Assembly: GCA_002084355.1 (NCBI GenBank)
Contig: NBLL01000001.1
Location: 1-50,581 of the forward strand
From: Bacteroidetes bacterium 4572_128
GTDB lineage: Bacteria; Bacteroidota; Bacteroidia; Bacteroidales; 4572-128
Length of the DNA stretch: 50,581 nt
Direction: 5' to 3'
Every line of letters starts with the position of its first letter. Within the stretch, counting starts at the first letter, position 1. A program made the position numbers and the translations under genes. Positions 7,283 through 50,581 of the stretch are shown piece by piece. A model generated the notes under the pieces. It had not been told where the DNA came from. It was given only the letters and a program-made list of their open reading frames with translations, and ran no database searches.

Positions 7283-8410
7283 ATTTTTCAAAAAAAACGC
7301 CAATTTTTTATGAATTATTAAAAAAAAAAATTTTTGAAAAATGCCAATTTTTTTATGAATTATTTAAAAAAAAACTTTTTCCAAAAAATGCCAATTTTTT
7401 ATGAATTATTTAAAAAAAAATTTTTTCAAAAAATGCCAATTTTTTTATGAATTATTAAAAAAAATTTTTTCCAAAAAATGCCAATTTTTTGTGAATTATT
7501 AAAAAAAAATTTTTTTCAAAAAAAACGCCAATTTTTTATGAATTATTTAAAAAAAAATTTTTTCAAAAAACGGCGTTTTTTTATGAGTCATTAAAAAAAA
7601 AAAATTTTTTTCAAAAAACGGCGTTTTTTTTATGAATTATTAAAAAAAAAATTTTTTCCAAAAAATGCCAATTTTTTATGAATTATTTAAAATTTTTTTT
7701 CAAAAAACGGCGTTTTTTTATGAATTATTAAAAAAAAAAATTTTTTCAAAAAACGGCGTTTTTTTTATGAATTATTAAAAAAAAAAATTTTTTCCAAAAA
7801 ACGGCGTTTTTTTATGAATTATTAAAAAAAATTTTTTCAAAAAATGCCAATTTTTTATGAATTATTTAAAAAAAAAATTTTTCCAAAAAATGCCAATTTT
7901 TTATGAATTATTTAAAAAAAAATTTTTTCCAAAAAACGGCGTTTTTTTTATGAGTTATTAAAAAAAAAAATTTTTTTCAAAAAAATGCCAATTTTTTATG
8001 AATTATTTAAAAAAAACTTTTTCCAAAAAATGCCAATTTTTTTATGAATTATTAAAAAAAATTTTTCCAAAAAATGCCAATTTTTTATGAATTATTTAAA
8101 AAAAAAATTTTTCAAAAAACGGCGTTTTTTTTATGAGTTATTAAAAAAAATTTTTTCAAAAAATGCCAATTTTTTATGAATTATTTAAAAAAAAATTTTT
8201 CCAAAAAACGGCGTTTTTTTTATGAGTTATTAAAAAAAAAATTTTTTTCAAAAAAATGCCAATTTTTTTATGAGTTATTAAAAAAAAATTTTTTTTCCAA
8301 AAAACGGCGTTTTTTTATGAATTATTAAAAAAAATTTTTTTCCAAAAACGCCAATTTTTTATAAATTATTAAAAAAAATTTTTTCCAAAAACGCCAATCT
8401 TTTATGAATT
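7283..8410 (+). repeat. tandem array, 25 units of about 45 bp, A/T-block repeat family (array A1)
   Basis: By hand count there are 25 head-to-tail units of ATGAATTATT, A8-10, T6-8, C(C)A6, a core, then T6-8. Core states are TGCCAA (12 units), CGGCG (9) and CGCCAA (4). Confidence 0.9.
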
Positions 8411-8488
8411 TAAAATTAATTTTTTATTGTAACTACAAGGGATATAATAATCATAAGACATTTGAACACTTATAAGAGTAGATTATGA

Positions 8489-8830
8489 TTATATTTCGTT
8501 TTTAATTAAATCTTTAATAAAAGTTATGTTTACATTTTTTTTCTCTGATTTATCGTAAATATGTAAAAGATAAATTTTGAAATCTTCTGTAATTTTATAC
8601 ATTATAATTCTTGCTCCTCCGCTTTTTCCTTGACTTTTGCTTTTTATTGCTAAACGCAATTTAAAAATATTAGATTTTATTTCTACACTATTTTTTAAAT
8701 TTTCTTCTAAATTATTAATAAAGTTTCGTAAATCGCTTTTCAAAGACTTATGTTTTTTAAACAATCTTTTTACATTTTTTTCAAAAGTATTGGAATAACT
8801 AACTTGATATTTTTTATTCATTATTCCCAA
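8489..8830 (-). CDS. RelE/ParE-superfamily type II toxin
   Basis: 113-aa ORF with the characteristic ...FKLRLAIKSKSQGKSGGARIIMY...LLHIYDKSEK block of addiction-module killer/RelE-like toxins. It overlaps the upstream ORF by 10 nt. Confidence 0.65.
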   Translation of the reverse strand: MGIMNKKYQVSYSNTFEKNVKRLFKKHKSLKSDLRNFINNLEENLKNSVEIKSNIFKLRLAIKSKSQGKSGGARIIMYKITEDFKIYLLHIYDKSEKKNVNITFIKDLIKNEI

Positions 8831-9294
8831 TTTTCAAACAATTCTTCTATAGGTTTAAACTCTTTTTCCCCTGCTTCTAATGCTTTCAATTCTTTAAAAG
8901 CATTTGTTAAACTTTCTGTTAATTCATCTTCTTGTTCTTTTTTTAAGTTCAAATATTCATCTATTTTTATTAATAAATTTTTATTTTCATATAGTTTTCC
9001 AAAAAATATAAAAGAAGGAATTTCTTTATAAAGTTCATTAATTTTTTTAATATCAAAATGTAAACTTTTACAATTTTTATAATATAATTTTCTAATATTT
9101 GAAAAATATTCTTTGAAAAAAATATTTTGTTCTTTGATTTGTTTTCTTTTTAAGAGATAATAAAAAGGTAATATCAAAGAATATATAAAAATAGAAAATA
9201 CATTCCAAAGACCTTTTTTAAATTTTCTAATGTATAAAAAAAAACTGTATTCTAATTGCAAATTAATTTGCTTTTGATTTAAAATATTTTCCAT
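8821..9294 (-). CDS. hypothetical protein with a TM segment; possible cognate antitoxin
   Basis: 157-aa ORF translationally coupled to the toxin. It has a hydrophobic segment (VFSIFIYSLILPFYYLL) and an acidic C-terminal tail (ESLTNAFKELKALEAGEKEFKPIEELFENWE) resembling small antitoxin C-termini. No family recognised. Confidence 0.35.
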   Translation of the reverse strand: MENILNQKQINLQLEYSFFLYIRKFKKGLWNVFSIFIYSLILPFYYLLKRKQIKEQNIFFKEYFSNIRKLYYKNCKSLHFDIKKINELYKEIPSFIFFGKLYENKNLLIKIDEYLNLKKEQEDELTESLTNAFKELKALEAGEKEFKPIEELFENWE

Positions 9295-9525
9295 CTTGAA
9301 TAAAATTAATAATTATTAATAATAAAACGATTTTTAATTAAAAAGATTTTTCATATATTATACAAATATAAATAATCTTTTTATTAAAAAAAATTTTTTT
9401 AATAAAAATTTGTTCATTACATTACACAATCATTGATTTTTAACTACGTTTTATAAAAAAAAAATTTTTTATAAAAAATTTTCGTAAAATGCAATTTTAT
9501 TTTTTAAAATTTTAATATTTGTTAT

Positions 9526-10122
9526 ATGAAAACAAGAGTTTTTAATTATTTGTTTATTATTTTTATATTTTCTTTTTTTCTTTCTTGTGCACCAAAAAGA
9601 AAAGTTAATAGAGTTTCTCCAGACCAGCAAATAGATCTTAGTGGACGATGGAATGACACAGATTCTAAAATGTGTGCAAAATCATTAATTGAGCAAGTTC
9701 TGACGGAAAAATGGTTAGATGAATTTAAACAAAAAAACGGAGGTAAAAGACCAATAATTGTTGTTGGACTTGTAAAAAATAAAAGCCACGAACATATTAG
9801 TTCGGAAACTTTTATAAAAGATATAGAAAAAGCAATTATAAAATCTGGATTAGCAAGACTTGTACAAGCAGGAGATAAAAGAGAACAACTAAGAGGTGAA
9901 AGAGCTGGACAACAAGAATTTGCTTCGAAAACCACAGCGAAAAAATGGGGACAAGAACTTGGAGCAGATTTTATGTTACAAGGAACTTTAAACTCAATAG
10001 TTGATAGTTATAAAAAGGAAAAGGTCGTTTCTTACCAAATTGATCTGGAACTTTCTAATTTAGAAACTAACGAAATAGTTTGGATGGGAGATAAAAAAAT
10101 TAAAAAATACATCACAAATTAA
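9526..10122 (+). CDS. LpoB-like (penicillin-binding protein activator family) lipoprotein
   Basis: Lipobox (FFLSC). The body matches the LpoB/YcfM pattern as I remember it (PIIVVGLVKNKS...GADFMLQGTL...VSYQIDLELSNLETNEIVW). Confidence 0.55.
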   Translation: MKTRVFNYLFIIFIFSFFLSCAPKRKVNRVSPDQQIDLSGRWNDTDSKMCAKSLIEQVLTEKWLDEFKQKNGGKRPIIVVGLVKNKSHEHISSETFIKDIEKAIIKSGLARLVQAGDKREQLRGERAGQQEFASKTTAKKWGQELGADFMLQGTLNSIVDSYKKEKVVSYQIDLELSNLETNEIVWMGDKKIKKYITN

Positions 10123-10127
10123 AAAAT

Positions 10128-10212
10128 AATGAGAAATGTGAATGAAAAAAACAAATATGAAAATTAGTTTACAGTTATATGAATTATTCATTTTTCATTC
10201 ACATTTCTCATT
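10128..10212. repeat. 85-bp MITE-like element or long hairpin with 22-bp perfect terminal inverted repeats
   Basis: AATGAGAAATGTGAATGAAAAA (10128-10149) is the exact reverse complement of 10191-10212. The spacer is 41 nt and holds a second small palindrome, ATGAAT-T-ATTCAT. AAAAAT flanks both sides (10122-10127 and 10213-10218). Confidence 0.7.
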
Positions 10213-12103: not shown

Positions 12104-12188
12104 AATTTTAAAAATTATTTTTGAAAAAATTTCGTTTAAGAGGAAATATTTTTTATTTAAATAAATATTTTTTTTAAATTATTATACT

Positions 12189-13943: not shown

Positions 13944-14590
13944 ATTTAAAAAAAAAAAATTTTTTTTAAAAATGACCAAATTTTTAATTTTTAAAAAATG
14001 CCATTTTTTTTAATTTAAAAAAAAATCAAGATATAGAAACCTAATTTTTATTTTTTTCTTAATTTTTTTCTTCAATTTTTTTTTTTTAATAATTAAAAAA
14101 ACATAAAATTTTAACATTTTTTCTTCAAATTTTTTTTTAATAATTCAAAATCATAAAAATTTTAGTATTTTTTCAAAAAATTTTTTTTTTTAATAATTAA
14201 AAGCATAAAAATTTCGGCATTTTTTAAAAAATTTTTTTTTAATAATCATAAAAATTTCGGCGTTTTTTTGAAAAAACTTTTTTTATTATTATAAAAAAAT
14301 CATTAAAATAATTGGTTTTTTTGAAAAATTTTTTTTTAATAATTCAAAATCATAAAAATTTCGGCGTTTTCTTGAAAAAATTTTTTTTAACATTGTAGGT
14401 TAAAAAAAACCTCCAATGTTGTTTTTTTTAAAATATTAAAATTTTGGACGTTTTTTGAAAAAAATTTTTTTTATTGAAAATTAAAATATTTGAAATTTTG
14501 GACGTTTTTTGGAAAATTTTTTTTAAATTGAAAATTAAAATATTTAAAATTTTGGACGATTTTTGAAAAAAAATTTTTTTTTAATAAATT
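13944..14590. repeat. A/T-block repeat family, mixed-orientation array (A2)
   Basis: Forward units lie at 13944-14020 (cores TGACCAAA, TGCCATT). Reverse-oriented units run from about 14040 (CATAAAAATTTCGGCG..., TAAAATTTTGGACG...TTGAAAAAAA). Confidence 0.8.
14389..14420. repeat. AACATTGGAGGTT palindromic element, degenerate copy
   Basis: AACATTGTAGGTT, an A run, then AACCTCCAATGTT. One arm mismatch relative to the copies at 22.4 kb and 43.9 kb. Confidence 0.75.
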
Positions 14591-14593
14591 TTT

Positions 14594-14637: not shown

Positions 14638-14644
14638 AAGAAAT

Positions 14645-15793: not shown

Positions 15794-15802
15794 AAAAATT
15801 TA

Positions 15803-20251: not shown

Positions 20252-20935
20252 AATTAAAAAAAATTTTTTTCAAAAATCGTCCAAAATTTTAATGTTTTTT
20301 TTAAATTGAAATTCTAAGTACACGACAAAAGTTTAAAAATGTTTATTTTTACTTTTTTTGCTGTGTTTAATAATTGATTTGTAATTTGATTTAATCCGAA
20401 ATAAATATTGTGATTTCTTTTCTTTTATGTTTTTTAGTTTTTATTTTTTTTCCATTTTTGGATGTTTTAATGATTTTTTAAAATTAAAAAAAAATTTTTT
20501 TTTCAATAAAATGCGGATTTTTAATGATTTTTTAAAATTAAAAAAAAATTTTTTTTTCAATAAAATGCGGATTTTTTAATAATTTTAAAATTCAATAAAA
20601 TGCGGATTTTTTAATAATTTTAAAAATTGAAAAAAAATTTTTTTTTCAATAAAATGCGGATTTTTAATGATTTTTTAAAATTGAAAAAAAATTTTTTTTT
20701 CAATAAAATGCGGATTTTTAATGATTTTTTAAAATTAAAAAAAAATTTTTTTTTCAATAAAATGCGGATTTTTTAATAATTTTAAAATTTTAAAATTAAA
20801 AAAAAATTTTTTTTTCAATAAAATGCGGATTTTTTAATAATTTTAAAAATTAAAAAAAAATTTTTTTTTCAATAAAATGCGGATTTTTTATTATTTTAAA
20901 ATTAAAAAAAATTTTTTTTTAATTAAAAAATTATA
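20252..20935 (+). repeat. A/T-block repeat family array (A3), private core TGCGGA
   Basis: One CGTCCAAAATTTTAATG unit at about 20275, a non-repeat island at about 20300-20455, then 8 units of ...A8-9 T9 CAATAAAATGCGGATTTTTAATGATTTT.... Spacing is mostly 54 bp (ATGCGG at 20511, 20565, 20600, 20654, 20708, 20762, 20823, 20877). Confidence 0.85.
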
Positions 20936-21474: not shown

Positions 21475-21642
21475 ATTTAAATTAAAAAAAAATTTTTTTT
21501 CAATAAAATGTTATTTTTTAATGTTTTTTAAAAATTAAATAAAAAAATTATTTTTTATTTATTTTTTTTAAATTTGCAATTTATTTATATAAAAATAAAT
21601 AAAATCAAGAAATCAAATTTTTAAATTTAAAAACATAATATT

Positions 21643-21972: not shown

Positions 21973-22313
21973 AAAAATTATATAAGGTATATTTTGATAC
22001 AAATATTCTTTTAGATTTTGCATTAAAACGCAAAAAATTCAATACCGTTGCCGCACAATTCATTATATTATTTCAAAACATAGAAACAGAACATTAGCAT
22101 TAGAATTTGTTAATGATCTAATGAATATTTTTGAAATCGCAGAATTTGATAAAAAAATTATTCAAAATGCTTTAAACTCTGATTTTAAAGATTTTGAAGA
22201 AGTTTTCTGCAATTGATTCCAATGTAGATATCATTGTTACAAGAAATATCAAAGATTTTAAAACTTCGCAACTAAAAGTATATAAACCAGAACAGTTTAT
22301 CAAATATTTTTAA
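21969..22313 (+). pseudogene. PIN-domain toxin remnant
   Basis: MKKLYKVYFDTNILLDFALKR... at the 5' end and ...DIIVTRNIKDFKTSQLKVYKPEQFIKYF at the 3' end are typical PIN ends. The middle is broken by several stops and frame changes. Confidence 0.55.
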
Positions 22314-22335: not shown

Positions 22336-22900
22336 AACATTGGTGTTAAAAAAAAAACTCCAATCCAGTGTTAAAAAATTTTTTTCAAAAATCGCCCAAA
22401 ATTTTAAGATTTTTAAAAAAACAACATTGGAGGTTTTTTTTTAAACCTCCAATGTTTGATGTCGAAACATTGGAGGTTAAAAAAAAAACCTCCAATGTTT
22501 TATTTGAATTAAAAAAAATTTTTTTGAAAAAAATGTCCAAAATTTTAAGATTTTTAAAAAAACAACATTGGAGGTTTTTTTTTAAACCTCCAATGTTTGA
22601 TGTCGAAACATTGGAGGTTAAAAAAAAAACCTCCAATGTTTTAAAAAATTTTTTTTTCAAAAAAACGTCCAAAATTTTATGATTTTTTATTTGAATTAAA
22701 AAAAAATTTTTTTTCAAAAATCGTCCAAAATTTTAAGATTTTTTATTTCAATTAAAAAAAAATTTTTTTTTCAAAAAATGCCTAAAATTTTAATGTTTTT
22801 TAATCTCAAAATTAAAAAAATTTTTTTCAAAAAACGCAATTATTTTAATGAATTTTATAATTAAAAAAAAAAAATTAAATTTGTTTTTTTATAAAAAATT
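22336..22900 (+). repeat. composite repeat region (A4): A/T-block units plus paired AACATTGGAGGTT palindromes, with a 141-bp tandem duplication
   Basis: The double-hairpin module at 22423-22500 is repeated at 22564-22641, an offset of exactly 141 bp. A degenerate copy lies at 22336-22372. A/T-block units with cores CGCCCAAAA, TGTCCAAAA, CGTCCAAAA, TGCCTAAAA and CGCAATTA follow, up to 22875. Confidence 0.85.
22876..22883 (+). promoter_or_regulatory. -7 promoter box (TAAATTTG) for the ATPase operon
   Basis: Exact TAnnTTTG, 22 nt upstream of the ATG at 22906. Confidence 0.4.
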
Positions 22901-24627: not shown

Positions 24628-26679
24628 ATGATAACAAATAATTTTTTCCAAGATTTTGATTTTCAGATTTTAAATTCTAATGATTTCAAAGAAGATGCGG
24701 TTAGAGAAGAATTAATTAACCCTATTTTAAAAAAATTAGGATATAAGGCTTACGGAAATAATAGAATAATTTACAGTAAAACGCTTTCACATCCTTTTGT
24801 AAAAATAGGCTCGGGAAAAAGAAAAATAAATATTATTCCAGATTATTTATTTTCTGTAAATGACCAATATACTTGGGTACTTGACGCAAAAGCTCCAAAT
24901 GAAAAAATTATAAATAGTGATAATGTTGGGCAAGTTTATTCTTATGCAATTCACCCAGAAAGAAAAAGAACCATTATTATTTTTTCAGCTTAACAAAATT
25001 GATAAACACTGGAACGAAATACAAAAATTATTATCTCCGGATATTTTTACAGAAAAACAAATTAAAAAAAAAGAAAAAAAAGAAGAAAAGAAAAATAATA
25101 ATTTTAATTATTTAGATTGTAAATTACCGAAATCTATTAAAGTAAAAAAACAAGCTGTAAAACGACATTATGGCGTACATGGTTATTTTACAAGACAAAG
25201 TTGGGATATTTTACAACATTATATTAAAAATTTCACCAAAAAAGGAGATCTTATTTTAGATAGTTTTGCCGGAACCGGAGTAACTGCGATAGAGGCTTTG
25301 ATGCTCGAAAGAAAAGCAATTAATATAGATTTAAATCCGATGGTTATTTTTTTAACTAAAGCTTTAACTATTCCTGTTGATTTCGAAATTTTACAAAAAG
25401 AATTTGAAATAATAAAAATTGCTTTTGAAAAAGATTGTCCAGAAACAAATGAAGAAATTGAAATTTCTTTAAAAAAATACCCCTTTCCTCAAAAAAAAAT
25501 TTTTTCTAAAGGTGCTGATGTAAAAGATGTAGAATATTTTTAACATTTCATAACTCAAAAAGAGGAGGAGGTCATCCAGGAGCATTTCGTTATTATCGTT
25601 ATCGTATTGCTCCAAATCCATATTTATTAGATTTATCTTCACTTTTTGTTTCTCGTTATAAAAAAATTATAAAAGCGAAAAAAGAGATTTTACCTTTTAT
25701 TAATAAAAAAACGATAAAAAATTTACAAATTTACAAAGGTAGTGCTACGAATTTAGAAAAAATAAAAAATGAAAGTATTGACTATATTTATACTGACCCC
25801 CCTTATGGCTCAAAAATACATTATTTAGATTTGTCTGTAATGTGGAATGCTTGGCTTGATTTAGAAGTCAGCGAAAAAGACCGCAATTTAGAAGCAATAG
25901 AAGGCGGAAGTAAAAATAAAAGCAAAGATGAATATGCCGAATTACTGCAAATTTCTATTAAAGAAATGTATAGAGTTTTAAAATTTAATCGTTGGATGTC
26001 TTTTGTTTTTGCTCATAAAGACCCACATTATTGGCATATAATTGTAGATACTGCCCAGAAATGCGGTTTTGAATATATTGGCGTTGTGAAACAATCCAAT
26101 GGACAAACGAGTTTTAAAAAACGTCAAAATCCTTTTTCGGTTTTGTCTGGTCAATTAATTATTAATTTTATCAAAAAAGAGCGTCCTTTATCAATTAATA
26201 AAATTAAATTAGGTGAGATTTATGATTTGGTTATAAATACTATAGAAAATATTATAGCCACCAATGACGGAGCTACCATAGAAGAAATTAATGATGAGTT
26301 AATTATCATGGGTTTAGAACATGGTTTTTTGCATATTTTAAGCAAAGAATATAAAGATTTAACGCCGATTTTGGTTTCAGAATTTGATCATAACCAAGAA
26401 ACAGAAAAATTTTATATTCGTAAAAACAGCAAATTTAAAAGTAAAATACCTTTAGATATGCGTATTAAATATTTTCTTTTTTCTTATTTTAAACAAAAAG
26501 AACGAGAAGATATTTATCCGACAACAGATAATATAATTTTGGATATTATGCCGCTTCTACAAAATGGAATTACTCCGGATGATCAAACAATTTTAATTAT
26601 TTTACGTTCCTTAGCAAATCCAATGAAAGATAATAAATGGAAATTAAAAGAAAAAGACCAGATAAAAATTTTTTTTTGA
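24628..26679 (+). pseudogene. PD-(D/E)xK (HsdR_N-type) nuclease-like domain fused to an N6A/N4C DNA methyltransferase; at least 2 frameshifts
   Basis: The gene is read in three frames: 24628-24993, 24917-25543 and 25519-26679. The N-terminus is EDAVREELINPILKKLGY...IPDYLF...WVLDAKAP (HsdR_N-like with PD...DAK). Motif I is LILDSFAGTGVTAIEALMLERKAINIDLNP. Motif IV is IYTDPPYGSKIHYLDLSVMWNAWL, reached only by reading the frame upstream of the called ORF at 25831. Both shifts lie in A/T homopolymer contexts. Confidence 0.7.
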
Positions 26680-26950
26680 AAAAACGGCGATTATTTTAAT
26701 GATTTTTGATAATTAAAAAAAAATTTTTTCCAAAATTCGTCCAAAATTTTAATGTTTTTAAAATTTAAAATTAAAAAAAATTTTTTTTCAAATTCGTCCA
26801 AAAATTTAATGTTTTAAAAATTAAAAAAAATTTTTTCAAAAAAATGACCAAAATTTTAACATTTTTAATTTCGAAAATAAAAAATGTTAAAATTTTTTTT
26901 CAAAAAAATGACCAAAATTTTCAATTTTTTTAAATGTTCAGAATGTCAGA
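26680..26950 (+). repeat. A/T-block repeat family array (A5)
   Basis: Five units with cores CGGCGATTA, TTCGTCCAAAA, TTCGTCCAAAAA, TGACCAAAA and TGACCAAAA. The array begins at the methyltransferase stop codon. Confidence 0.85.
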
Positions 26951-28129: not shown

Positions 28130-28294
28130 ATTTAAATCGTCAAAATTTTCAATTTTTAACGAAAAAAATTTTTCCAAAAAAACGCCCAAAATTTTAACAT
28201 TTTAATTTAGAGTTAAAAAAATTTTTTCAAAAAAATGACCAAAATTTTAACATTTTAATTTTGAAAAAATTTTTTCAAAAAAATGACCAAAATT
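28130..28294 (+). repeat. A/T-block repeat family array (A6)
   Basis: Units with cores CGTCAAAA, CGCCCAAAA, TGACCAAAA and TGACCAAAA. Confidence 0.8.
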
Positions 28295-29242
28295 TTATAA
28301 TTTATTTTTTAATAAGTTATCAAAATAATTTATTGTTTTTATCAAACCTTCTTCCAACTGAATTTTTGGTGCCCAGTTATTTAGATTTTTTTTTGCTAAT
28401 TTAATATCTGGTTTTCTTTGCATAGGGTCGTCTTTTGGCAAAGGAAAATAAGTTATTTTAGAATTAGAATTTGTCAATTTTATAACTTTTTTAGCTAATT
28501 CCATAATGGTAAATTCATTAGGGTTTCCAATATTTACAGGACCAATAAATTCATCATTAGTATTCATCATTCTTATCATTCCTTCAACTAAATCGTCCAC
28601 ATATTGAAAACTTCTTGTCTGCAAACCATCACCGTAAATGGTAATATCTTCATTTTTTAAAGCCTGAATGATAAAATTAGAAACTACTCTACCATCTTTT
28701 TTATGCATACGAGGTCCATAAGTATTAAAAATTCTAACAATTTTAATTTTGACATTGTTTAATTGGTGATAATTCATAAATAAAGTTTCCGCACATCTTT
28801 TGCCTTCGTCATAACAAGCACGCAAACCAATAGGATTTACATTTCCCCAGTAACTTTCTTTTTGTGGATGAACTTTTGGGTCTCCATAAACTTCACTTGT
28901 TGAAGCTTGTAAAATTTTTGCTTTTTTTCGTTTAGCAAGTCCAAGCATATTTATCGCTCCCATTACAGAAGTTTTTACTGTTTTTATGCCGTTTTCTTGA
29001 TAATGAATTGGAGACGCTGGACAAGCTAAATTATAAATTTGTTCAACTTCTGCATAATATGGCATAATAATATCATGTCTAACTAATTCAAAATAAGGAT
29101 ATTTTAATAAATGAACAATATTTTTTTTGTCTCCGGTAAAATAATTATCTAAACAAATAATATCATTTCCTTCGTTCAATAATCTTTCGCAAAGGTGCGA
29201 ACCAACAAAACCAGAACCACCAGTAATTAAAATTTTTTTCAT
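28295..29242 (-). CDS. UDP-glucuronate decarboxylase (UDP-xylose synthase-like SDR)
   Basis: [33 protein letters not shown], catalytic YDEGKR, overall UXS-type sequence. Confidence 0.85.
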
Positions 29243-30018
29243 AATACAAATTTATTTTTTTTTTATTATTTAAAATAAAAAATTTTTTTTCAAAAAATGG
29301 CAATTATTTTAAGATTTTTTTCAAAAAAATGACAATTTTTTAATGATTTTTTATAATTAAAAAAAAATTTTTTTTCAAAAAACGTCCAAATTTTAATGTT
29401 TTTCAAATTAAATTAAAAAATTTTGGCTATCGAACCTTTTTGTGGAGGGAAATTTTTTCATAATAAAATTGTGAAAAATTTGTGTTTTTTTTTTAATATT
29501 TTTTAAAATTTTTTATTTCAAATCGTCACTAAAGCATTAAAAATCAATGCTTTGTAAAAAGATGCAACGAAATCATCGTGGACGATGAATCATTTTGTGT
29601 CCAAAATTTTAATATTTTTAAAATTAAAAATAAAAAAAATTTTTTCAAAATTCGTCCAAAAATTTAATGTTTTTAAAATTAAAAATAAAAAAAATTTTTT
29701 CAAATTCGTCCAAAAATTTAATGTTTTTAAAATTAAAATTTAAAAAAAAATTTTTTTCAAATTCGTCCAAAAATTTAATATTTTTTAATTTCAAAAATAA
29801 AAAAAATTTTTTTCAAATTCGTCCAAAAATTTAATGTTTTTAAATTTAAAAAATTTTTTTTTCAAATTCGTCCAAAAATTTAATGTTTTTAAAATTAAAA
29901 TTTAAAAAAATTTTTTTTTTGAAAAATCCAAATATTTTTTAATCTCAAAAATCCAAATATTTTAATATTTTATTTCAAAAATAAATTTTTCAAAATTGCG
30001 TTTTTTTTTAATGTTTTT
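29243..30018 (+). repeat. A/T-block repeat family array (A7), interrupted by about 200 bp of unique sequence
   Basis: Units at 29283-29400 have cores TGGCAATTA, TGACAATTT and CGTCCAAA. Unique sequence at 29401-29600 contains a half copy of the 63-bp palindrome at about 29570-29595. Five units of about 57 bp carrying TTCGTCCAAAAATTTAAT lie at 29650-29885. Degenerate units follow to 30018. Confidence 0.85.
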
Positions 30019-32952: not shown

Positions 32953-33012
32953 AAATATTTTTTTGCAAAATAATAATTTTTTATTTTTATAAAAAAAACG
33001 CCATTTTTTCAA

Positions 33013-33360
33013 AAAATATTTTTCAAAAAAACGCTAAATTTTTAATGATTTTAAATTAAAATTTTTTTATTTGAAATTATTAAAAAAAAATTTTCCAAAA
33101 ACGCCAAAATTTTTAATTTTTATTTCAAAAAATATTTTCCAAAAAACGCCAAAATTTTCAATTTATTTAAAAAAAAATTTTTCCCAAAAACGCCAAAATT
33201 TTTAATTTATTTAAAAAAATATTTTTCCAAAAAACGCCAAAATTTTTAATTTATTTAAAAAAATATTTTCCAAAAAAACGCCAAAATTTTTGATTTTTAT
33301 TTCAAAAAAAATTTTTCCAAAAAACGCCAAAATTTTCATGATTTTATTTTTCAATAAAAA
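33013..33360 (+). repeat. A/T-block repeat family array (A8), core CGCCAAAA
   Basis: Seven units of about 45-55 bp: ...TTTTTCCAAAAAACGCCAAAATTTTTAATTTATTTAAAAAAA.... Confidence 0.85.
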
Positions 33361-36140: not shown

Positions 36141-36170
36141 TTCTGCACTTGCGGTATTTTTACCGCACAT
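36141..36170. repeat. G/C-containing hairpin element, copy 1 (related to 43786-43820)
   Basis: TCTGCACTTGCGGTATTTTTACCGCACATATTATT. The stem is TGCGGTA/TACCGCA. It shares the CTGC.C..TGCGGT.TTTT.ACCGCACAT.ATTATT frame with the copy at 43.8 kb. Confidence 0.6.
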
Positions 36171-36179
36171 ATTATTCAT

Positions 36180-36330
36180 AATTTCAAAATTAAAAAAATT
36201 TTTTTCAAAAATCATTCAAAATTTTAAATTTTTTAAATCAAAATAAAAAAATTTTTTTCAAAATTCGTGAAAATTTCAATATTTTGATTTAAAAATAATT
36301 TTTCAAAATTCGTGAAAAATTTAATATTAA
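36180..36330 (+). repeat. A/T-block repeat family, three degenerate units (A9)
   Basis: Cores TCATTCAAAA, TTCGTGAAAA and TTCGTGAAAAA, each followed by TTT(C/T)AA(A)T. Confidence 0.6.
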
Positions 36331-38402: not shown

Positions 38403-38483
38403 TTTCTTATAAATTATATAAATTTTCAAAATATTGAAATTTTGGACGAATTTGAAAAAAAATGTTTTTTTAATAAATTAAAA

Positions 38484-40983: not shown

Positions 40984-42313
40984 ATGAGAGAAATTTTAAT
41001 AAAAAATGCAAAAATTTTAATAAAAAATGAAGGAAATTTTAATAAAAAATGCAAAAATTTTAATGAAAATAAAATTTTTTCCGGAGACGTTTTTTTAAAA
41101 GATGAAAAAATAGAAGATATTTTTTTAAAAAAAAACGGCAAATATTCAAAAAAAAATTTTTCAAAAGATATTTTGGAAATAGATGCTTCGGGAAAATATT
41201 TAATTCCGGGAATTATTGACACACACGTACATTTTAGAGATTTTAAAATCTCTGAAAAAGGAACTATAGAAACAGAATCTAAGGCAGGAATTGCGGGAGG
41301 AGTTACTTCTTACATAGAAATGCCCAACACAGACCCTCCGACGGTTTCTATAAAATCTTTGAATGAAAAATTTCAAATTGCTTCGGAAAAATCATGGTCA
41401 AATTATTCTTTTTACATAGGTGCAACAGATGATAATTTTGACGAAATTTTAAAAATTAATCCTAAAAAGATTTGTGGAGTAAAAGTTTTTCTTGGTTCTT
41501 CTACGGGAAATATTATTGTAAAAAACAAAGAAATTTTGAAAAAAATTTTTTCTTTACCTTTTTTAATTGCCGTACATTGTGAGGACGAAGAAATTATAAA
41601 AAAAAACGAGATTTTTTATAAAAAAAAATTTGGTGAAAATATTGATATAAAATATCATTCTAAAATTAGAAGTGAAGAGGCTTGTTTTAAATCGTCTTTT
41701 TTTGCGGTAGAAATGGCAAAAAAATATAATACAAGATTGCACATTAAGTGAAGTTTGTTTACATCATTTATTTTTTGACGAAAATGATTATTTTGATAAA
41801 AAAGGAAGAATAAAATTAAATCCCTCTATAAAAACGTGTAAAGATAAAAATGCTTTATTTAATTCTGTAAAAAACGGAAAAATAGATGTCATTTCAACAG
41901 ACCATGCTCCGCATTTGTCAGAAGAAAAAGAAAATTCTTATTTTAAATGTCCATCAGGTTCTCCTTTTATACAACATTCACTCATTGCAATTTTAGAAAA
42001 ATATCATAAAAAAGAGATTTCTCTTGAAAAAATAGTTGAGAAAATGGCTCACGCACAAAGTGATATTTTTAATATTTATAAAAGAGGATACATTAAAAAA
42101 GGATATTTTGCAGATTTAGTGCTTTTAGATTTATCAAAAAAATGGACGGTAAATAAAAAAGATATTTTATATAAATGTGCATGGTCTCCATTGGAAAATG
42201 AAATTTTTTCTTCAAAAGTTACGCACACTTTTGTAAATGGAAATTTAATTTATGAAAATGGAAATTTTTATAAAAAAATTAAAGCAAAAGCTTTAGTTTT
42301 TAAAAAATCATAA
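40984..42313 (+). pseudogene. pyrC: dihydroorotase, internal deletion plus frame change; also carries a 5' repeat expansion
   Basis: ORF 40984-41751 has IPGIIDTHVHFRD and AVHCEDEEII. From 41750, in another frame, the sequence reads EVCLHHLFFDENDYFDKKGRIKLNPSIKT...IDVISTDHAPH and continues into ORF 41915-42313. The segment between ...RLHI and EVCLHHL is missing. Confidence 0.75.
40990..41064 (+). repeat. 21/22-bp tandem repeats inside the 5' end of pyrC
   Basis: AAATTTTAATAAAAAATG(C/A)A occurs three times, plus a fourth diverged copy. A 32-bp perfect direct repeat lies at 40990-41021 and 41033-41064. The net effect is a 42-nt in-frame insertion (IKNEGNFNKKCKNF). Confidence 0.85.
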
Positions 42314-42400
42314 AATTTTGGACGAATTTTGAAAAAAAATTTTTTTTATTTTAAAATTAAAAAAATTAAAATTTTGGTTATTTTTTGAAAAAAAATCAAA
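42314..42400 (-). repeat. A/T-block repeat family, two reverse-oriented units (A11)
   Basis: ATAAAATTTTGGACGAATTTTGAAAAAAAATTTTTTTT and TTAAAATTTTGGTTATTTTTTGAAAAAAAA. Confidence 0.6.
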
Positions 42401-43576: not shown

Positions 43577-43652
43577 AATTTTTTCATTTACAAAAAGATT
43601 TTATTATTATTACAAGAATAATAAAACAAACATAATGCAAATAAAGAGCTAA

Positions 43653-44027
43653 TTTTTTTTTTTTAATTTAAAAAAAAAAATCATTAAAATTTCGTCGCTT
43701 TTTTCAAAAAATTTTTTTTAATTAAAAAAAATCATTAAAATTTCGTCGTTTTTTTCAATTTTTTTTTTTTTAATTATAAAAAATCATCCTGCGCCTGTGC
43801 GGTGTTTTCACCGCACATTATTAAATTAAAAATGTTAAAATTTTGGGCAAATTTCAAATTTTTTTTTTTAAATTGAAAATTAAAAAATGTTAAAATTTTG
43901 GACGAATTTGAAAAATTTTTTTAACATTAACATTGGAGGTTTTTTTTTAAACCTCCAATGTTTGATGTCGAAACATTGATGTCGAAACATTGATTTCAAA
44001 ATTTATTTTTTGAATTCAAAAATATAA
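43653..44027 (-). repeat. composite repeat region (A12): reverse A/T-block units, G/C hairpin, AACATTGGAGGTT palindrome
   Basis: Reverse units carry ATTAAAATTTCGTCG and TAAAATTTTGGGCA/GGACG. The hairpin is at 43797-43816. The palindrome is at 43929-43962, followed by ATGTCGAAACATTG twice. Confidence 0.8.
43786..43820. repeat. G/C-containing hairpin element, copy 2
   Basis: ATCCTGCGCCTGTGCGGTGTTTTCACCGCACATTATT. The 8-bp stem is GTGCGGTG/CACCGCAC with loop TTTT. Confidence 0.6.
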
Positions 44028-44951: not shown

Positions 44952-44968
44952 TCTTTAAAATTTTTTTA

Positions 44969-44976
44969 CAAAAATA
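44969..44976 (-). promoter_or_regulatory. -7 promoter box (TATTTTTG on the minus strand)
   Basis: Plus strand reads CAAAAATA, 17 nt upstream of the start codon at 44951. Confidence 0.4.
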
Positions 44977-45065
44977 AAAAAAAAATTTAATTTTTCGTTT
45001 TTTTTGAAAATTTTTTTCAAAAAATATATTAAAATTTATACGATTTTTGAAAAAATTTTTTATTT

Positions 45066-45665: not shown

Positions 45666-45681
45666 TATTAAAAATATTTTT

Positions 45682-47405: not shown

Positions 47406-47456
47406 ATAATTTTAAATTAAAATTTCAAAATTAAATTTTTTTTCAAAAAAATCAAA

Positions 47457-48224
47457 TTACCAATCTTTATCAATTTTAAATTTTTGTAATTTCTTTTTGT
47501 CTTTTTTCAATTTATCTTTTGTTTCTTTCTCTTTATGTTGAATTGCTTTTAAAATATTTTGAGCATCTTTTTTAGAAATTTCTTGTTTTTCTTGTTTTTG
47601 TTGTTCTTTTTTATCGTCCTTTTTATCATTTTTTTCATCGTCCTTTTTTTCTTTCTTCTTTTTTTCTTTATTTTTTTCATCTTCATTTTTTTTATCTTGT
47701 TCATCCTTTTGATTTTTTTTATCTTTTTGGTCTTCACCTTTATCATCGTCATTTTTTTTATCGCTGTCCGGATTAGGATTTTCACATTCTGGTTGTTTCT
47801 TTTTTAAATTATTTGCCATAGCAAGATTAAATTTTGTGTCCATACGTTCTGGCATATTTTTTAAAGCATTTTTATAAGATTTTATTGCCTCATCTAATTT
47901 TTGGTTTTTTAAATAAGAATTACCAAGATTATGAAAAATATTTGCAAGTTTCTCTTTGCTTCTCTGCGTATTTGATAAAAAAGAAAAATATTCTATTGCT
48001 TTCTCATAATTACCTTTCTTATAATAAGAATTCCCTAAATTAAATTCTGCTTCGAAAGAATTTGAATTTATTTCCAGAGCTTTTTCGTAAGAATTAATTG
48101 CTCTACTATAATTTTTTTTTTCAAAAAAATCGTTTCCTTCTCTAATATAACTTCTTTCCATCTGAGAAAATGCAGAGAAATAAAAAAATAAAATTAAAAT
48201 ACCAGTAAAAAATTTTTTATACAT
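47457..48224 (-). CDS. TPR protein with a K/D/E-rich tail (BatC/BatE-like)
   Basis: Signal/TM segment, three TPR units (YSRAINSYEKALEINS, YEKAIEYFSFL, LDEAIKSYKNALKN), then about 90 residues of KDE low complexity. It lies directly upstream of batD. Start taken at the ATG at 48224. Confidence 0.6.
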   Translation of the reverse strand: MYKKFFTGILILFFYFSAFSQMERSYIREGNDFFEKKNYSRAINSYEKALEINSNSFEAEFNLGNSYYKKGNYEKAIEYFSFLSNTQRSKEKLANIFHNLGNSYLKNQKLDEAIKSYKNALKNMPERMDTKFNLAMANNLKKKQPECENPNPDSDKKNDDDKGEDQKDKKNQKDEQDKKNEDEKNKEKKKKEKKDDEKNDKKDDKKEQQKQEKQEISKKDAQNILKAIQHKEKETKDKLKKDKKKLQKFKIDKDW

Positions 48225-48281
48225 TTTTTTTTTAAATTTTTGCAAATTAAATTTTTTTTTTTTTATAAAAAAAAAAATTTT

Positions 48282-49196
48282 TTAATCATTTGTTAAAATA
48301 TCGTTTCTTAATTTATCTATATAATTAACAATATTCATAACTTGTTCATCTGTAATTTCTATTTTTTCAAGATTTCGCAAAGTTATTATGCTATTTTCTT
48401 TATCTATTTTTAGATTTTTATCTAAATTTTTAATCTTAATTTTATCAAATTTACTTTTTAAAATCATCAACCTTGTAAAATATTTAGAAACAGTTAAATC
48501 ATTTTGATTTTTACTAAGAAGTTCCAAAATCGTATTTAAGGATAATTTTTGCAATAAAAAATAATTTTTTAATTCTAAATTATCTTTTTCTCTGGTAATA
48601 ATATTTCCAGTAATATACATAGATTCTAACCATCCACCCATAATAACAAGTATGGGTGTATTTTTTTTATTTTCTTCTTTCAAATATTTATTTAATATTT
48701 CATAAGTTTTTATCATAATTTTTTCTATTTCTGCATTACTTTTGCTATTTTCCCACTCTGAGTAAATATCAGATGTCTCTTCTCTTGAAATATTTAATTT
48801 TTCCATCATTAAAATTATTATCGGAATATAATTTATAGCATATAAATCATATTCAAAAACTCTACAGTAAATTAGATCAGCCATATAAGTTCCAAGTTTC
48901 AATGCAAGATAACCGCCACTAAAATTATCTATTTTTTCTATTTCTGGACTTAGTAAATCTGGATAAAAGTCAGCTTTTCCATTTACAATAATTTCACTTA
49001 CTTGTTCTGGACTTGGCAGATTATAATATATTTTAATAACATTTTTTTTCTCAAATTTTAATTTTTTGAGAGAATCTTCAATGACTTTTTTTAGACTATC
49101 TTCTTTAGATAAAAAATCTAATTTATTATTTTGATTGCAAGAAATCAAAATAAATAATACTATGATTAATAAAATTATAAAGCTATTTTTTTTCAT
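48282..49196 (-). CDS. hypothetical lipoprotein
   Basis: Lipobox (FILISC). No family recognised. It is the first gene of the minus-strand cluster that ends with batD and the PAP2-like gene. Confidence 0.4.
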   Translation of the reverse strand: MKKNSFIILLIIVLFILISCNQNNKLDFLSKEDSLKKVIEDSLKKLKFEKKNVIKIYYNLPSPEQVSEIIVNGKADFYPDLLSPEIEKIDNFSGGYLALKLGTYMADLIYCRVFEYDLYAINYIPIIILMMEKLNISREETSDIYSEWENSKSNAEIEKIMIKTYEILNKYLKEENKKNTPILVIMGGWLESMYITGNIITREKDNLELKNYFLLQKLSLNTILELLSKNQNDLTVSKYFTRLMILKSKFDKIKIKNLDKNLKIDKENSIITLRNLEKIEITDEQVMNIVNYIDKLRNDILTND

Positions 49197-49264
49197 AAAA
49201 AAATTTTTTTATTATTAAAAAAAAAACAAATTAATTTTTTTTTTAATAATAAAAAAATTTTACA

Positions 49265-49272
49265 TACTTTTG
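49265..49272 (+). promoter_or_regulatory. -7 promoter box (TACTTTTG) for dnaN
   Basis: Exact TAnnTTTG in the TTTTGTAAAAATT context, 25 nt upstream of the ATG at 49298. Confidence 0.45.
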
Positions 49273-49297
49273 TAAAAATTATTTAAATATTTTATAA

Positions 49298-50392
49298 ATG
49301 AGATTTATAGTTTCAAGTTCTGAGTTGCTTATGCACTTACAAATGGTAAGTAAAGTTATTGGTAATAGAAATTCTCTTCCTATTCTTGATAATTTTCTGT
49401 TTAATTTAAGAAAAGATGAAGTTTTAACGGTTACAACTTCTGATTTAGAAACAACATTAACGACAGAAATAGAAGATCTAAGTATGGTAGAAGGAGAGGG
49501 AAATATTGCTATAGAGTCAAAAAGATTATTAGAAATTTTAAGATTGTTACCAGAACAACCATTAACTTTTGAAATAAACGAAGAAAACCTTGACGCAATT
49601 ATTTTTTCAGAAAACGGTGAATTTAGTATAGCAGCTTATCCGCCAGAAGATTTTCCATTACCTCCAGAAGTAGATAAAGAAAAAGGAGTTGATCTTGTTT
49701 TAGACGCTAATCTTTTTCTTAATGGAATAAATACGACGCTTTTTGCAACTGGAGATGACGAATTACGTCCAGTTATGAATGGTATATTTATTGAATTTTT
49801 AAAATCTTTTATTTTACCAAATAAACCATCATCTTTATTAAAAAGTTTTTTATCTAAGGAAGATAATGTTTCTTTGAAATTTGATGATAAAAATGCTATT
49901 TTTTCAATAGGAAATAGAAAATTAGTTTGTCGTTTGCAAGAGGGCGAATATCCTGCTTACAATAATGTTATTCCTTTGGAAAATCCAAATAAAATGGTGA
50001 TTGAAAGAATGGACTTTTTAAATTCTTTAAAAAGAGTACATGCTTTTTCTAACGAAATAACAAGTCTTGTAGAATTGGAATTAGATAAAGATCAAATTAA
50101 AGTTTCTGCAAAAGACGTTGATTATAATGTTTCTGCTTACGAGAATTTATCTTGTGAATATTCTAATGAAAAAATAAAAATTGGGTTTAAAGGTTCTTAT
50201 TTAACAGAGATTTTACAAAATTTAAAATCTGCTGACATAAATTTTGAATTGTCAGACCCAAACAGAGCAGCACTTTTATTTCCTTATGTAAATGAAAATG
50301 AAAACGAAGATGTATTGATGTTAATTATGCCTATGATGATAGATGTTTATTATGCCTATGATGATAGATGTTTAAAAAACATAAAGTTTTAA
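49298..50392 (+). CDS. dnaN: DNA polymerase III beta sliding clamp, aberrant (in-frame internal deletion and altered C-terminus)
   Basis: Clear DnaN N-terminus (MRFIVSSSELL...LPILDNFLF...) and C-terminus (...NRAALLFP...MLIMPMMI). The universally conserved ATDxHRL strand of domain II is absent (junction ...RPVMNGIFIEF | LKSFILPNKP near 49799). The 3' end is extended by a 25-bp tandem duplication. Confidence 0.8.
   Translation: MRFIVSSSELLMHLQMVSKVIGNRNSLPILDNFLFNLRKDEVLTVTTSDLETTLTTEIEDLSMVEGEGNIAIESKRLLEILRLLPEQPLTFEINEENLDAIIFSENGEFSIAAYPPEDFPLPPEVDKEKGVDLVLDANLFLNGINTTLFATGDDELRPVMNGIFIEFLKSFILPNKPSSLLKSFLSKEDNVSLKFDDKNAIFSIGNRKLVCRLQEGEYPAYNNVIPLENPNKMVIERMDFLNSLKRVHAFSNEITSLVELELDKDQIKVSAKDVDYNVSAYENLSCEYSNEKIKIGFKGSYLTEILQNLKSADINFELSDPNRAALLFPYVNENENEDVLMLIMPMMIDVYYAYDDRCLKNIKF
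50324..50373 (+). repeat. perfect 25-bp tandem duplication at the dnaN stop codon
   Basis: ATTATGCCTATGATGATAGATGTTT occurs at 50324-50348 and again at 50349-50373. Confidence 0.95.
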
Positions 50393-50395
50393 TTC

Positions 50396-50431
50396 AAATT
50401 CCAATTTTTAAAAAAATTGGAATTTTTTTTT
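50396..50431 (+). terminator. rho-independent terminator after dnaN
   Basis: AAATTCCAATTTTT / AAAAATTGGAATTT palindrome followed by a T9 run, 4 nt after the stop. Confidence 0.55.
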
Positions 50432-50581
50432 CAAAAAAACGACCAAATTTTAATGATTTTTTAAAATTAAAAAAATATTTTTTTCAAAAAAACGACCAAA
50501 TTTTAATGATTTTTTAAAATTAAAAAAATTTTTTTTTCAAAAAAACGACCAAATTTTAATGATTTTTTAAAATTAAAAAAA
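50432..50581 (+). repeat. A/T-block repeat family array (A14), core CGACCAAA, 53-bp period
   Basis: Three essentially identical units, CAAAAAAACGACCAAATTTTAATGATTTTTTAAAATTAAAAAAA(T)ATTTTTTT. The core C is at 50440, 50493 and 50546. The array runs off the window end. Confidence 0.9.

Follow-up and report, generated by a model that had tools for sequence, protein, structure and literature searches.

A short A+T-rich intergenic repeat that behaves like fast-evolving satellite DNA in a Bacteroidetes genome

What is the short repeat that occupies so many of the gaps between genes in contig NBLL01000001.1 of Bacteroidetes bacterium 4572_128, and does it behave as a signal, a mobile element or simply as amplified DNA? 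We analysed the first 50,581 nucleotides of this contig (the window), in which an initial annotation had recognized one repeat family in almost every gap between genes. The unit is non-coding, 44–57 bp long and ~85% A+T, and runs from a perfect A-run/T-run palindrome through a C, an A-run, CG(T/C)CC, A4T4 and AAT(G)A to a T-run (family consensus A8 T7 C A6 CG(T/C)CC A4T4 AAT(G)A T6 AA). Rfam returned no match for the units. With an nhmmer profile made from 40 units cut by hand (non-overlapping matches at E≤0.01), we found 74 copies in the window, with envelopes totalling 3,237 bp, against 0–1 matches in each of 20 dinucleotide-preserving shuffles of its intergenic DNA (14.9% GC). A two-unit pattern likewise matched 19 times in real DNA and never in 100 shuffles. 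The initial observation is thereby confirmed. Units were present at all 15 sites that had been listed, those at 21.5, 36.2–36.3 and 45.0 kb being weak or degenerate (E 0.007–0.06). The accompanying estimate of about a tenth of the window proved slightly too high, because the arrays span 3,853 bp, equal to 7.6% of the window and 38% of its non-ORF DNA.

The family extends well beyond the window. We located 531 further copies on ~62 contigs of the metagenome-assembled genome (MAG) GMC9.metabat2.18, which is ~97% identical to the window genome, and 601 of the 605 copies in the two sources are intergenic. Across the roughly 0.5 Mb sampled there are at least 171 arrays, distributed over more than 170 separate gaps with one unit architecture throughout; 45 of the 171 are solo units, and copies per gap range from 1 to 25. 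Occupancy follows gap size: units occur in 22 of 24 gaps of at least 600 bp, in 31 of 39 gaps of 300–599 bp and in 6 of 169 gaps shorter than 150 bp. Long arrays are where short-read assemblies break or acquire N-gaps, and the window contig has odd deletions relative to other assemblies, both of which would fit an assembly artefact of low-complexity reads. We regard that explanation as extremely improbable, since five or more assemblies made independently (ENA, NCBI and JGI) contain the same arrays with the same flanking genes, and 600 bp of the longest array are base-identical between assemblies. Exact copy numbers of long arrays are nonetheless uncertain, because several of these independent assemblies place N-gaps inside them.

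Array composition varies along the window. The array at 7279..8412 (+) begins on the stop codon of a tatC fragment and holds 25 units with a period of 44–49 bp and interleaved TGCCAA, CGGCG and CGCCAA cores; its positions 7816–8412 recur without change in L193, an independent JGI contig. Near 14 kb, two degenerate + units (13951..14011; E 0.0013 and 0.11) share a gap with arrays on the − strand, namely five units with (C/T)GCCGA cores and a period of about 51 bp (14146..14388), then a hairpin element (14392–14421), then three CGTCC units with a period of 54 bp (14430..14580). A solo TCGTCC unit directly follows the atpC terminator hairpin (20256..20300, +); the GMC9 strain keeps it and has two additional units and two genes after it. 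The 7–8 TGCGGA units at 20488..20897 (+; period 54 bp) include a 35-bp partial-unit duplication at 20556–20625, and their core type is shared by the GMC9 strain at this locus. Beyond a weak solo unit (21486..21530, +; E 0.013) lie six units with mixed cores (22373..22858, +), the first two within a 141-bp higher-order repeat that also holds paired hairpin elements; assembly L001 carries one extra unit here, an exact one-unit difference from the window. Five units (one CGGCG, two TTCGTCC and two TGACC) occupy 26664..26921 (+), the first overlapping the final 15 bp of the upstream ORF, and three more (one CGCCC, two TGACC) adjoin the stop of an epimerase gene at 28162..28306 (+). Three units with mixed cores (29277..29403, +) precede an array at 29632..30018 (+) in which five TTCGTCC units (29632–29894; period 55–57 bp) give way to degenerate ones. 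Seven CGCCAA units with a period of about 44–45 bp (33011..33347, +) stop 85 bp short of the next start codon, and three degenerate units follow at 36193..36321 (+; E 0.007–0.6). On the − strand we mapped a solo unit in a convergent gap (38425..38470), at which GMC9 carries a unit in + orientation beside different genes; a good unit overlapping the stop of the upstream ORF plus a degenerate one (42301..42394), with GMC9 synteny ending directly after the first; two pairs of units with a GTGCGGT...ACCGCAC hairpin between them and a hairpin element after them (43675..43921); and degenerate remnants (45040..45061; E 0.06). Three CGACC units with a period of 53 bp (50425..50581, +) are interrupted by the window end, and other assemblies continue this array to at least eight units counted on either side of an N-gap. 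Tandem Repeats Finder and direct reading of the arrays gave periods of 46, 51–52, 54 and 56–57 bp, in keeping with the earlier observation that unit length differs between arrays.

Comparing units within and between arrays showed how this variation is organized. Cores had been described as array-specific, and the strings reported for individual arrays are indeed there, but several arrays are mixed (at 14.2, 22.4, 26.7 and 29.3 kb, besides the three interleaved variants at 7.3–8.4 kb). The core is a family-wide conserved CG(T/C)CC with a few variable positions rather than a free G/C box: C24, G25 and C27 are retained in 81–93% of copies, and a core-independent census found at least three G/C within the 6-nt core at 385 of 460 anchors. 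Mismatch averages 0.19 within arrays and 0.28 between them, a difference more than 20 s.d. from label permutation, and inside arrays it climbs from 0.161 at lag 1 to 0.209 at lag 5. Together with the out-of-register duplications of 35 bp at 20.56 kb and 141 bp at 22.4 kb, these values bear out the idea of local amplification or concerted evolution. Similarity between arrays beside the same gene did not exceed that of random arrays, so simple local spreading is not seen.

Orientation and gap usage bear on whether the units act as transcription signals, that is, as intrinsic terminators, Bacteroidota-type promoters or promoter decoys. Units are stacked head-to-tail: neighbours within an array share orientation in 422 cases and oppose each other in 12. 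Of 109 arrays flanked by genes on both sides, 28 lie in convergent, 25 in divergent and 56 in co-directional gaps, and arrays run with co-directional neighbours in 23 cases and against them in 28, in agreement with the annotated lack of any consistent relation to flanking transcription. The annotated orientations within the window also hold (+ at 7–36 and 50 kb; − at 14.1–14.6 and 38–45 kb). A short + remnant at 13.95 kb can be added to them. Units do adjoin stop codons or terminator hairpins, and on the reverse strand they show AAATTTTG, which departs at one position from TAnnTTTG, the Bacteroides promoter −7 consensus. However, no −33 TTTG lies 19–21 bp from this near-match, the canonical TATTTTTG upstream of the 33.4 kb gene falls outside the array, and sigma-70-like sites are not enriched (117 versus 107.5 ± 10.6). 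Nor do the units fold beyond shuffles as RNA or DNA on either strand (z −0.8 to +1.9), whereas true terminator hairpins near arrays score z −7 and −12. All terminator-like matches in 20–34 kb belong to elements other than the units. A separate embedded family of AACATTGGAGG-T9-AAACCTCCAATGTT hairpins (22421..22641, unstranded; also 14392–14421 and 43927–43960; z −12), not the repeat units, forms terminator-like structures. With orientation random relative to genes and convergent gaps used as freely as divergent ones, the terminator and promoter or decoy roles floated in the initial annotation are not supported, and a transcription-signal reading, already disfavoured, is very improbable.

Strain comparisons revealed that array turnover is much faster than that of the flanking genes. 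Between strains whose array flanks are 96–98% identical, orthologous arrays can be opposite in orientation with different cores (L087 versus L073) or differ from at least five units to one (L192 versus L031); comparison of L034 and L043 with the window shows two extra genes and synteny breaks at units. Short-read misassembly at repeats may account for some of these differences. An array was nevertheless present at all seven orthologous gaps compared, even where its content differed. The suggestion that arrays are recombination hotspots fits these comparisons, but arrays fill most large gaps anyway, and the two effects are indistinguishable here. In the nearest relatives the family was absent from the loci sampled, including 20-kb loci of relatives at 27% and 33% GC; no conserved cellular process therefore depends on it.

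The spread of one unit architecture to more than 170 loci raises the possibility of a non-autonomous mobile element, copied into new gaps by a trans-acting enzyme with tandem growth as a secondary event. Consistent with this, about a quarter of arrays are the solo units counted above, orthologous gaps can hold oppositely oriented arrays, and the copies look young. Against it, the flanks of 18 solo units contained no inverted ends or target-site duplications and graded into degenerate units rather than showing sharp boundaries. As had been annotated, no transposase, integrase or RAYT domain was found among the window ORFs scanned, and no high-copy gene appeared among 338 proteins of the sampled loci. 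One candidate enzyme is an expanded, stand-alone family of ~215 aa whose invariant D...QExK motif is, in our alignment, reminiscent of PD-(D/E)XK nucleases. It has at least seven paralogues in the sampled loci, each flanked by arrays and one lying just past the window end, and 298 database clusters, at least nine of them named for this MAG. However, array flanking is expected for any gene in this genome, the paralogues are old (39–63% identity), the family has no Pfam, NCBIfam or PDB match, and it also occurs in the relatives at 27% and 33% GC whose 20-kb loci lack units. On balance, we consider mobilization in trans unlikely.

Alternatively, the arrays might be functional DNA. Each unit would then offer a site, CG(T/C)CC set between intrinsically bent A-run/T-run junctions, to a DNA-binding or nucleoid protein particular to this lineage, and the arrays would serve as orientation-independent insulators, spacers or chromosome-organizing sites. 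Retention of G/C positions in 15% GC DNA, the presence of an array at every orthologous gap compared, and a combination of orientation indifference with use of every gap type would all suit a duplex-binding role. So would predicted local curvature, 16–22 degrees versus about 13 ± 1–2 in shuffles (wedge model, under which control sequences behaved correctly). The predicted bends are only local, which weakens the curved-DNA role proposed earlier: predicted end-to-end compaction of arrays equals that of shuffles, so they do not add up in phase, and the helical repeat does not divide evenly into unit periods of 43–50 and 54–58 bp. Also against a binding role, strains ~97% identical do not conserve array sequence, copy number or even orientation, copies per gap range from 1 to 25, the family is absent from the loci sampled in the nearest relatives, and no candidate protein was found. 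We therefore hold a protein-binding function to be rather improbable.

The repeat thus acts like fast-evolving satellite DNA, unlike a promoter, terminator or classic mobile element, and we think it probable that the family is a lineage-specific, non-coding, interspersed minisatellite that grows locally by slippage or unequal exchange. Arrays would expand, contract and homogenize through replication slippage or exchange between neighbouring units, for which long A/T runs and identical palindromes could supply homology. Rapid turnover, rather than selection, would preserve the few G/C positions, and the arrays, presumably lacking sequence-specific cellular function, would still enlarge intergenic DNA. 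They may also act as substrates for rearrangement and for gene gain or loss between strains. Several observations sit less easily with the minisatellite interpretation. Slippage accounts for array growth but not for the unit's reach to so many gaps; arrays flanking the same gene are no more alike than random ones; arrays less than 2 kb apart tend to share orientation (36:10); bending is predicted above shuffles; and G/C retention could mean selection for a protein-binding site instead of youth.

Known systems offer partial parallels. In Proteobacteria, REPs are imperfect palindromes rich in G+C; they fold into stable hairpins, switch orientation from copy to copy within BIMEs and have a partner RAYT (Y1 transposase) gene. 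Like REP/BIME and REPIN–RAYT systems, the present family comprises hundreds of short, lineage-confined intergenic copies, often in composite arrays, but it has no hairpin, uniform orientation within arrays and no RAYT in the window. A MITE is bounded by terminal inverted repeats and target-site duplications and inserts as one copy, and Rickettsia palindromic elements (RPEs) also insert into genes. Our units share with MITEs such as Neisseria Correia elements and RPEs a short, non-coding, highly reiterated form without its own transposase, yet they lack such ends and duplications, are dominated by tandem arrays and are 99% intergenic. Eukaryotic satellite or minisatellite DNA, which evolves in concert by unequal exchange, shares the array-local homogenization, the fall in similarity with distance within an array, the higher-order repeats and the quick turnover seen among close relatives, although here short arrays of 1–25 units are scattered between the genes of a bacterial chromosome, with no large blocks. 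A bacterial precedent for intergenic tandem-repeat proliferation, accompanied by structural instability, is 'Candidatus Portiera aleyrodidarum' of Bemisia tabaci, for which slippage and altered replication or repair are the proposed causes (Sloan & Moran 2013, PMC3673631). Its genome, too, is AT-rich, with unusually large intergenic regions full of tandem repeats that correlate with structural variation and rearrangement, but those are 7-bp microsatellites, not a 44–57 bp family with a conserved internal motif at all loci (PMC3673631). The MIRUs (mycobacterial interspersed repetitive units, minisatellite/VNTR loci) of Mycobacterium tuberculosis (see PMC3635867) likewise measure tens of bp per unit and lie head-to-tail between genes at many scattered places, with locus-specific variants, copy number varying between strains and no hairpins. 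MIRUs are GC-rich, occupy about 40 loci, follow the orientation of neighbouring operons and in some cases carry small ORFs overlapping flanking genes, in contrast to our A+T-rich units with their A-run/T-run palindrome, at least 171 arrays, absence of an orientation rule and share of about 38% of non-coding DNA. The two have no sequence similarity, and the best reading of the present family is a new, MIRU-like interspersed minisatellite.

Reading of the sequence found the AT-rich units head-to-tail at every site where the initial annotation had reported them, with the core strings and orientations that it gave, and Tandem Repeats Finder returned periods of 46, 51–52, 54 and 56–57 bp in the window. 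Carrying out the profile mapping it had proposed, with an nhmmer profile of 40 hand-cut and aligned units and with overlapping opposite-strand echoes discarded, we identified 74 window units at E ≤ 0.01, whose envelopes cover 3,237 bp. The arrays that these units form span 3,853 bp, making up 38% of the window's non-ORF DNA and 7.6% of its total length. Base composition does not account for this density: 20 dinucleotide-preserving shuffles of the intergenic DNA (14.9% GC) yielded 0–1 unit each, and a two-unit pattern matching 19 times in the window found nothing in 100 shuffles. Across the window and loci from Bacteroidales bacterium GMC9.metabat2.18 (GMC9), we counted at least 605 units in 171 arrays of 1–25 units, with GMC9 contributing at least 531. 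Unit period is bimodal, at 43–50 bp and at 54–58 bp with a peak at 56 bp (385 adjacent unit pairs). Aligned to the profile, the 605 units give the consensus A8 T7 C A6 CG(T/C)CC A4T4 AAT(G)A T6 AA. The strings reported earlier for the 'G/C core' were right, but because the consensus contains CG(T/C)CC, the core is a conserved motif whose variation is mostly confined to 3–4 positions; C24, G25 and C27 are retained in 81%, 91% and 93% of units, respectively.

The family is genome-wide and lineage-restricted. In a GTDB scan for the two-unit pattern, with each species represented by one genome, ~62 of the 70 matches listed belonged to GMC9, which is 97–98% identical to the window where the two overlap and is therefore a close strain. 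The other six genomes among the matches listed contained no profile match, so we regard them as chance hits of the pattern. Unit-bearing JGI metagenome contigs are all 17–29% GC, nearly all at or below 25%, and two share 99.9–100% identity with the window where they overlap it. Units were not found in L202 (27.7% GC), a locus from the same sample that belongs to a relative at 58% identity, nor in two 20-kb loci from relatives at 27% and 33% GC. The window itself is 22% GC and its DNA is carried by several public assemblies. On the scaffold that contains it, the product of a gene lying just beyond the window end is identical to an NCBI protein labelled 'MAG: Bacteroidetes bacterium 4572_128', a name that presumably denotes one of the Guaymas Basin sediment MAGs. 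The lineage is isolated, since, among 5.8 billion proteins, the next-nearest DnaN shares only 58% identity. Among the products of window genes are glutamine synthetase, SHMT, the beta and epsilon subunits of ATP synthase, BatD, DnaN and a TonB-type Plug receptor, and accessory genes are plentiful (RelE, PIN, DUF2442, Fic, an N6/N4 methyltransferase and an AAA_15 ATPase).

Nearly all units (601 of 605) are intergenic. Within GMC9 loci, they occupy 22 of 24 gaps of at least 600 bp, 31 of 39 gaps of 300–599 bp, 27 of 44 gaps of 150–299 bp and 6 of 169 gaps below 150 bp, counts that are biased upward because these loci were picked for containing units. Arrays begin on or overlapping stop codons, or after a terminator hairpin, and end ~50–85 bp before start codons. 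Searching the literature on similar repeats in Bacteroidales, we found no published description of the family, which is previously undescribed and notable for its density and for consisting almost entirely of A and T runs around a short conserved CG(T/C)CC motif.

Several observations bear the signatures of slippage or unequal exchange. Over positions 7–46, mismatch averages 0.19 within arrays versus 0.28 between arrays, a difference of >20 sd by label permutation that bears out the earlier proposal of local amplification or concerted evolution. The excess of within-array similarity also appears in the core alone and in the tail alone, and mismatch within arrays grows with lag, from 0.161 (lag 1) to 0.209 (lag 5). 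Two duplications are out of register, one of 35 bp (20556–20625) and one of a 141-bp module comprising one unit and two hairpins (22.37–22.64 kb). At 22.5 kb, L001, an overlapping scaffold from another assembly, has exactly one unit more than the window. Core homogenisation per array, as described in the initial annotation, stands insofar as arrays are internally more alike, but it has not gone to completion, with mixed arrays at 14.2, 22.4, 26.7 and 29.3 kb and a 25-unit array that interleaves TGCCAA, CGGCG and CGCCAA. Prompted by TGACC units flanking Fic, we considered whether genes had inserted into existing arrays. Arrays on the two sides of one gene resemble each other no more than random arrays do, and thus there is no sign of gene insertion or of local spread across genes. 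We think that the units are probably a neutral or selfish minisatellite.

Conservation of the core could alternatively reflect selection. Profile matches are biased toward intact cores and so cannot serve as proof of it; we therefore ran a core-independent census anchored on the A-run/T-run-C-A-run. CG came next in 309 of 460 anchors and at least three G/C fell within the following six bases in 385 of 460, an ambiguous outcome. We favour young copies as the explanation, which fits with fast array turnover, with a putative binding site as the alternative; that the units serve as a binding platform seems distinctly unlikely.

Comparing array turnover between relatives, as the initial annotation had suggested, revealed arrays that differ strongly between flanks of 96–98% identity. 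An array was present in all seven orthologous gaps compared, often with different content. After atpC, the window and GMC9 have the first unit in common, and also the TGCGGA array that follows. At 38.4 kb, window and GMC9 units are oppositely oriented and the neighbouring genes differ; at 42.35 kb, synteny between the two stops directly after a shared unit. Two further loci, L087 and L073, have a common flank with opposite array orientation and different cores. Unit number differs as at least 5 versus 1 (L192 versus L031) and 3 versus 1 (the GMC9 locus L034 versus the window), in short-read assemblies with long arrays N-gapped. N-gaps likewise make long-array copy numbers not comparable with the overlapping scaffolds L001, L002, L196 and L198, and misassembly of short reads at repeats may contribute to the strain differences. 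Arrays coincide with gene-content differences between close strains, but synteny breaks at units are not by themselves proof that units cause rearrangements, because arrays cover most large gaps anyway.

Between the shared elements after atpC, GMC9 carries two more units and two small genes (L034, 180–980), where unrelated DNA of ~150 bp lies in the window (20300–20450). The two genes are a strain-specific presence/absence difference bounded by units.

The window also lacks stretches of 46–121 bp at 22060, 24960, 25539, 41745, 42782, 45891 and 49800. These seven short deletions hit six genes (PIN, the methyltransferase twice, a dihydroorotase-like gene, CarbopepD_reg, BatD and dnaN) that are intact in up to four other, otherwise ~100% identical assemblies, the comparison at 22060, 24960 and 25539 being with one assembly only. 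Microhomology at the junctions is 0–3 bp. Further genes are split, namely tatC (6.6–7.3 kb), DUF1015 (30.5–31.7 kb) and a prolyl oligopeptidase (36.4–38.4 kb). These deletions and splits would be explained either by genuine pseudogenisation in a single population or by faulty assembly of the contig.

Other dispersed elements accompany the arrays. A second family consists of perfect AACATTGGAGG-T9-AAACCTCCAATGTT hairpins, frequently in back-to-back pairs, at 14392–14421, 22421–22500, 22562–22641 and 43927–43960 in the window; the motif also occurs in 11–17 GMC9 loci. These hairpins look like putative bidirectional terminators in or beside unit arrays. A third hairpin, GTGCGGT(N5-6)ACCGCAC, lies at 36150–36172 and 43790–43815 and in 10 GMC9 loci, and a fourth short element, TTGGCTATCGAACC(T4)GTGGAGGG, at 29421–29450 and in 5 GMC9 loci. 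Scanning a viral collection for units gave two matches only, chance or partial. The 108.8-kb phage contig IMGVR_UViG_3300032322_002195 (32% GC) has three ~57-bp tandem units at 2925–3100, intergenic and beside a G-rich block, that start with an A-run/T-run, C, A6 and GGG. Their partial resemblance to the first half of our unit is probably chance or convergent, and the rest is unrelated.

Orientation is uniform within arrays, with adjacent units in the same orientation in 422 cases and opposed in 12. As noted in the initial annotation, orientation has no consistent relation to flanking transcription: between co-directional genes, 23 arrays run in the same direction as their neighbours and 28 in the opposite one. 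Arrays are divided 28:25:56 among convergent, divergent and co-directional gaps, near the chance expectation of 1:1:2. Among window and GMC9 loci, the ratio of matching to opposed orientation is 36:10 for arrays separated by less than 2 kb, compared with 29:22 beyond 2 kb; although they tend to match in orientation, these close arrays are no more similar in sequence than random arrays.

We then assessed functional readings of the units. Neither strand of three-unit stretches from three arrays folded better than dinucleotide shuffles (z −0.8 to +1.9); nearby controls gave z −7.2 (atpC terminator) and z −12 (AACATTGGAGG-T9-AAACCTCCAATGTT hairpin). Rfam 15 had no match at gathering score in the whole window, and a tRNA scan was likewise negative. 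An intrinsic terminator would have a G+C stem-loop, a T run and a gene-oriented arrangement. The units lack the fold, are randomly oriented and were absent from a terminator scan, whose matches were other elements only (the atpC terminator and the hairpins). Bacteroidota promoters pair a −33 TTTG with a −7 TAnnTTTG at ~19–21 bp spacing. The one-mismatch −7 octamer reported earlier does exist, but by sequence reading no −33 TTTG stands at the proper spacing, and a canonical TATTTTTG lies outside the array, upstream of the 33.4 kb gene. Sigma-70-like sites numbered 117 against 107.5 ± 10.6 expected, under a sigma-70 model. Both the terminator and the promoter reading fail on folds, scans and orientation statistics, and units are equally frequent in convergent gaps.

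The suggestion of DNA curvature was weakened. A wedge-model trajectory, with A6-phased, A4T4 and T4A4 controls behaving as expected, predicts local bends of 16–22 degrees versus ~13 ± 1–2 in shuffles. Macroscopic curvature was rejected, since modelled end-to-end compaction equals that of shuffles and unit periods avoid 10.5-bp multiples. From the larger bends, equal compaction and off-helix periods, the units are predicted to be locally bent, with no sign of a selected curved superstructure.

How units reach new loci bears on whether they are a mobilised element, which we consider unlikely. Flanks of 18 solo units contained no inverted ends or target-site duplications, only a single A-run/T-run end, and often graded into degenerate units. 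A Pfam scan of window ORFs recovered no transposase, integrase or RAYT domain, consistent with the initial annotation, and 338 proteins from the sampled loci included no product of a high-copy gene and none of a multi-copy gene resembling a transposase. The largest paralogue family in these loci is a stand-alone protein of ~215–260 aa with an invariant D...QExK (D109, Q127, E128, K130), a motif resembling that of PD-(D/E)XK nucleases. One member lies ~1.3 kb beyond the window end (L196, 11858–12502), with others in loci L011, L040, L051, L060 and L063. The family comprises 298 database clusters, with at least nine paralogues named for 'Bacteroidetes bacterium 4572_128', and has no match in Pfam, NCBIfam or PDB. 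A link to the units is weakened by this and because relatives without units also have the family, partly in tandem (L203, L204), and we do not draw one.

There is a slim chance that the units are something new, either a chromatin/insulator element or DNA on which a novel system of mobilisation acts. As the former, repeated CG(T/C)CC sites within bent A-run/T-run palindromes could be bound by a lineage-specific protein. As the latter, the palindrome, being its own reverse complement, could permit duplication, deletion and inversion, and the expanded D...QExK family might possibly serve such a system. Finding a binding protein or mobilising enzyme would sharply raise the importance of the unit family.

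About one-third of the non-coding DNA in this uncultured, 22% GC Bacteroidetes is one satellite-like family. Such a load is unusually heavy by bacterial standards and makes the genome a natural system in which to examine concerted evolution, slippage and the expansion of intergenic DNA beyond eukaryotes and insect symbionts. Contig ends and N-runs fall on arrays; because short-read assemblies are broken or gapped there, arrays can confound MAG binning and analyses of synteny. Like VNTRs, they would also serve as very fine strain markers.

Among known repeat classes, REP/BIME sequences are defined by a stable stem-loop that the units are missing (fold z −0.8 to +1.9). MITEs such as the Correia element do not fit either, given the lack of terminal inverted repeats and target-site duplications at the 18 solo units. 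CRISPR arrays have unique spacers, absent here because the whole period repeats, and no cas domains were found in the window. The units are closest in kind to MIRU-type interspersed minisatellites. Both have units of ~40–100 bp arranged head-to-tail (here 43–50 or 54–58 bp), a likeness in kind and not homology, and in both, many dispersed intergenic loci carry one unit (here 171 arrays, with 601 of 605 units intergenic). True MIRUs are oriented with the adjacent operon and contain small ORFs overlapping the flanking genes. Such operon orientation is absent here (23 same versus 28 opposite among co-directional neighbours). Closest to the units in process is Portiera of Bemisia tabaci, whose intergenic DNA is inflated by tandem repeats (PMC3673631).
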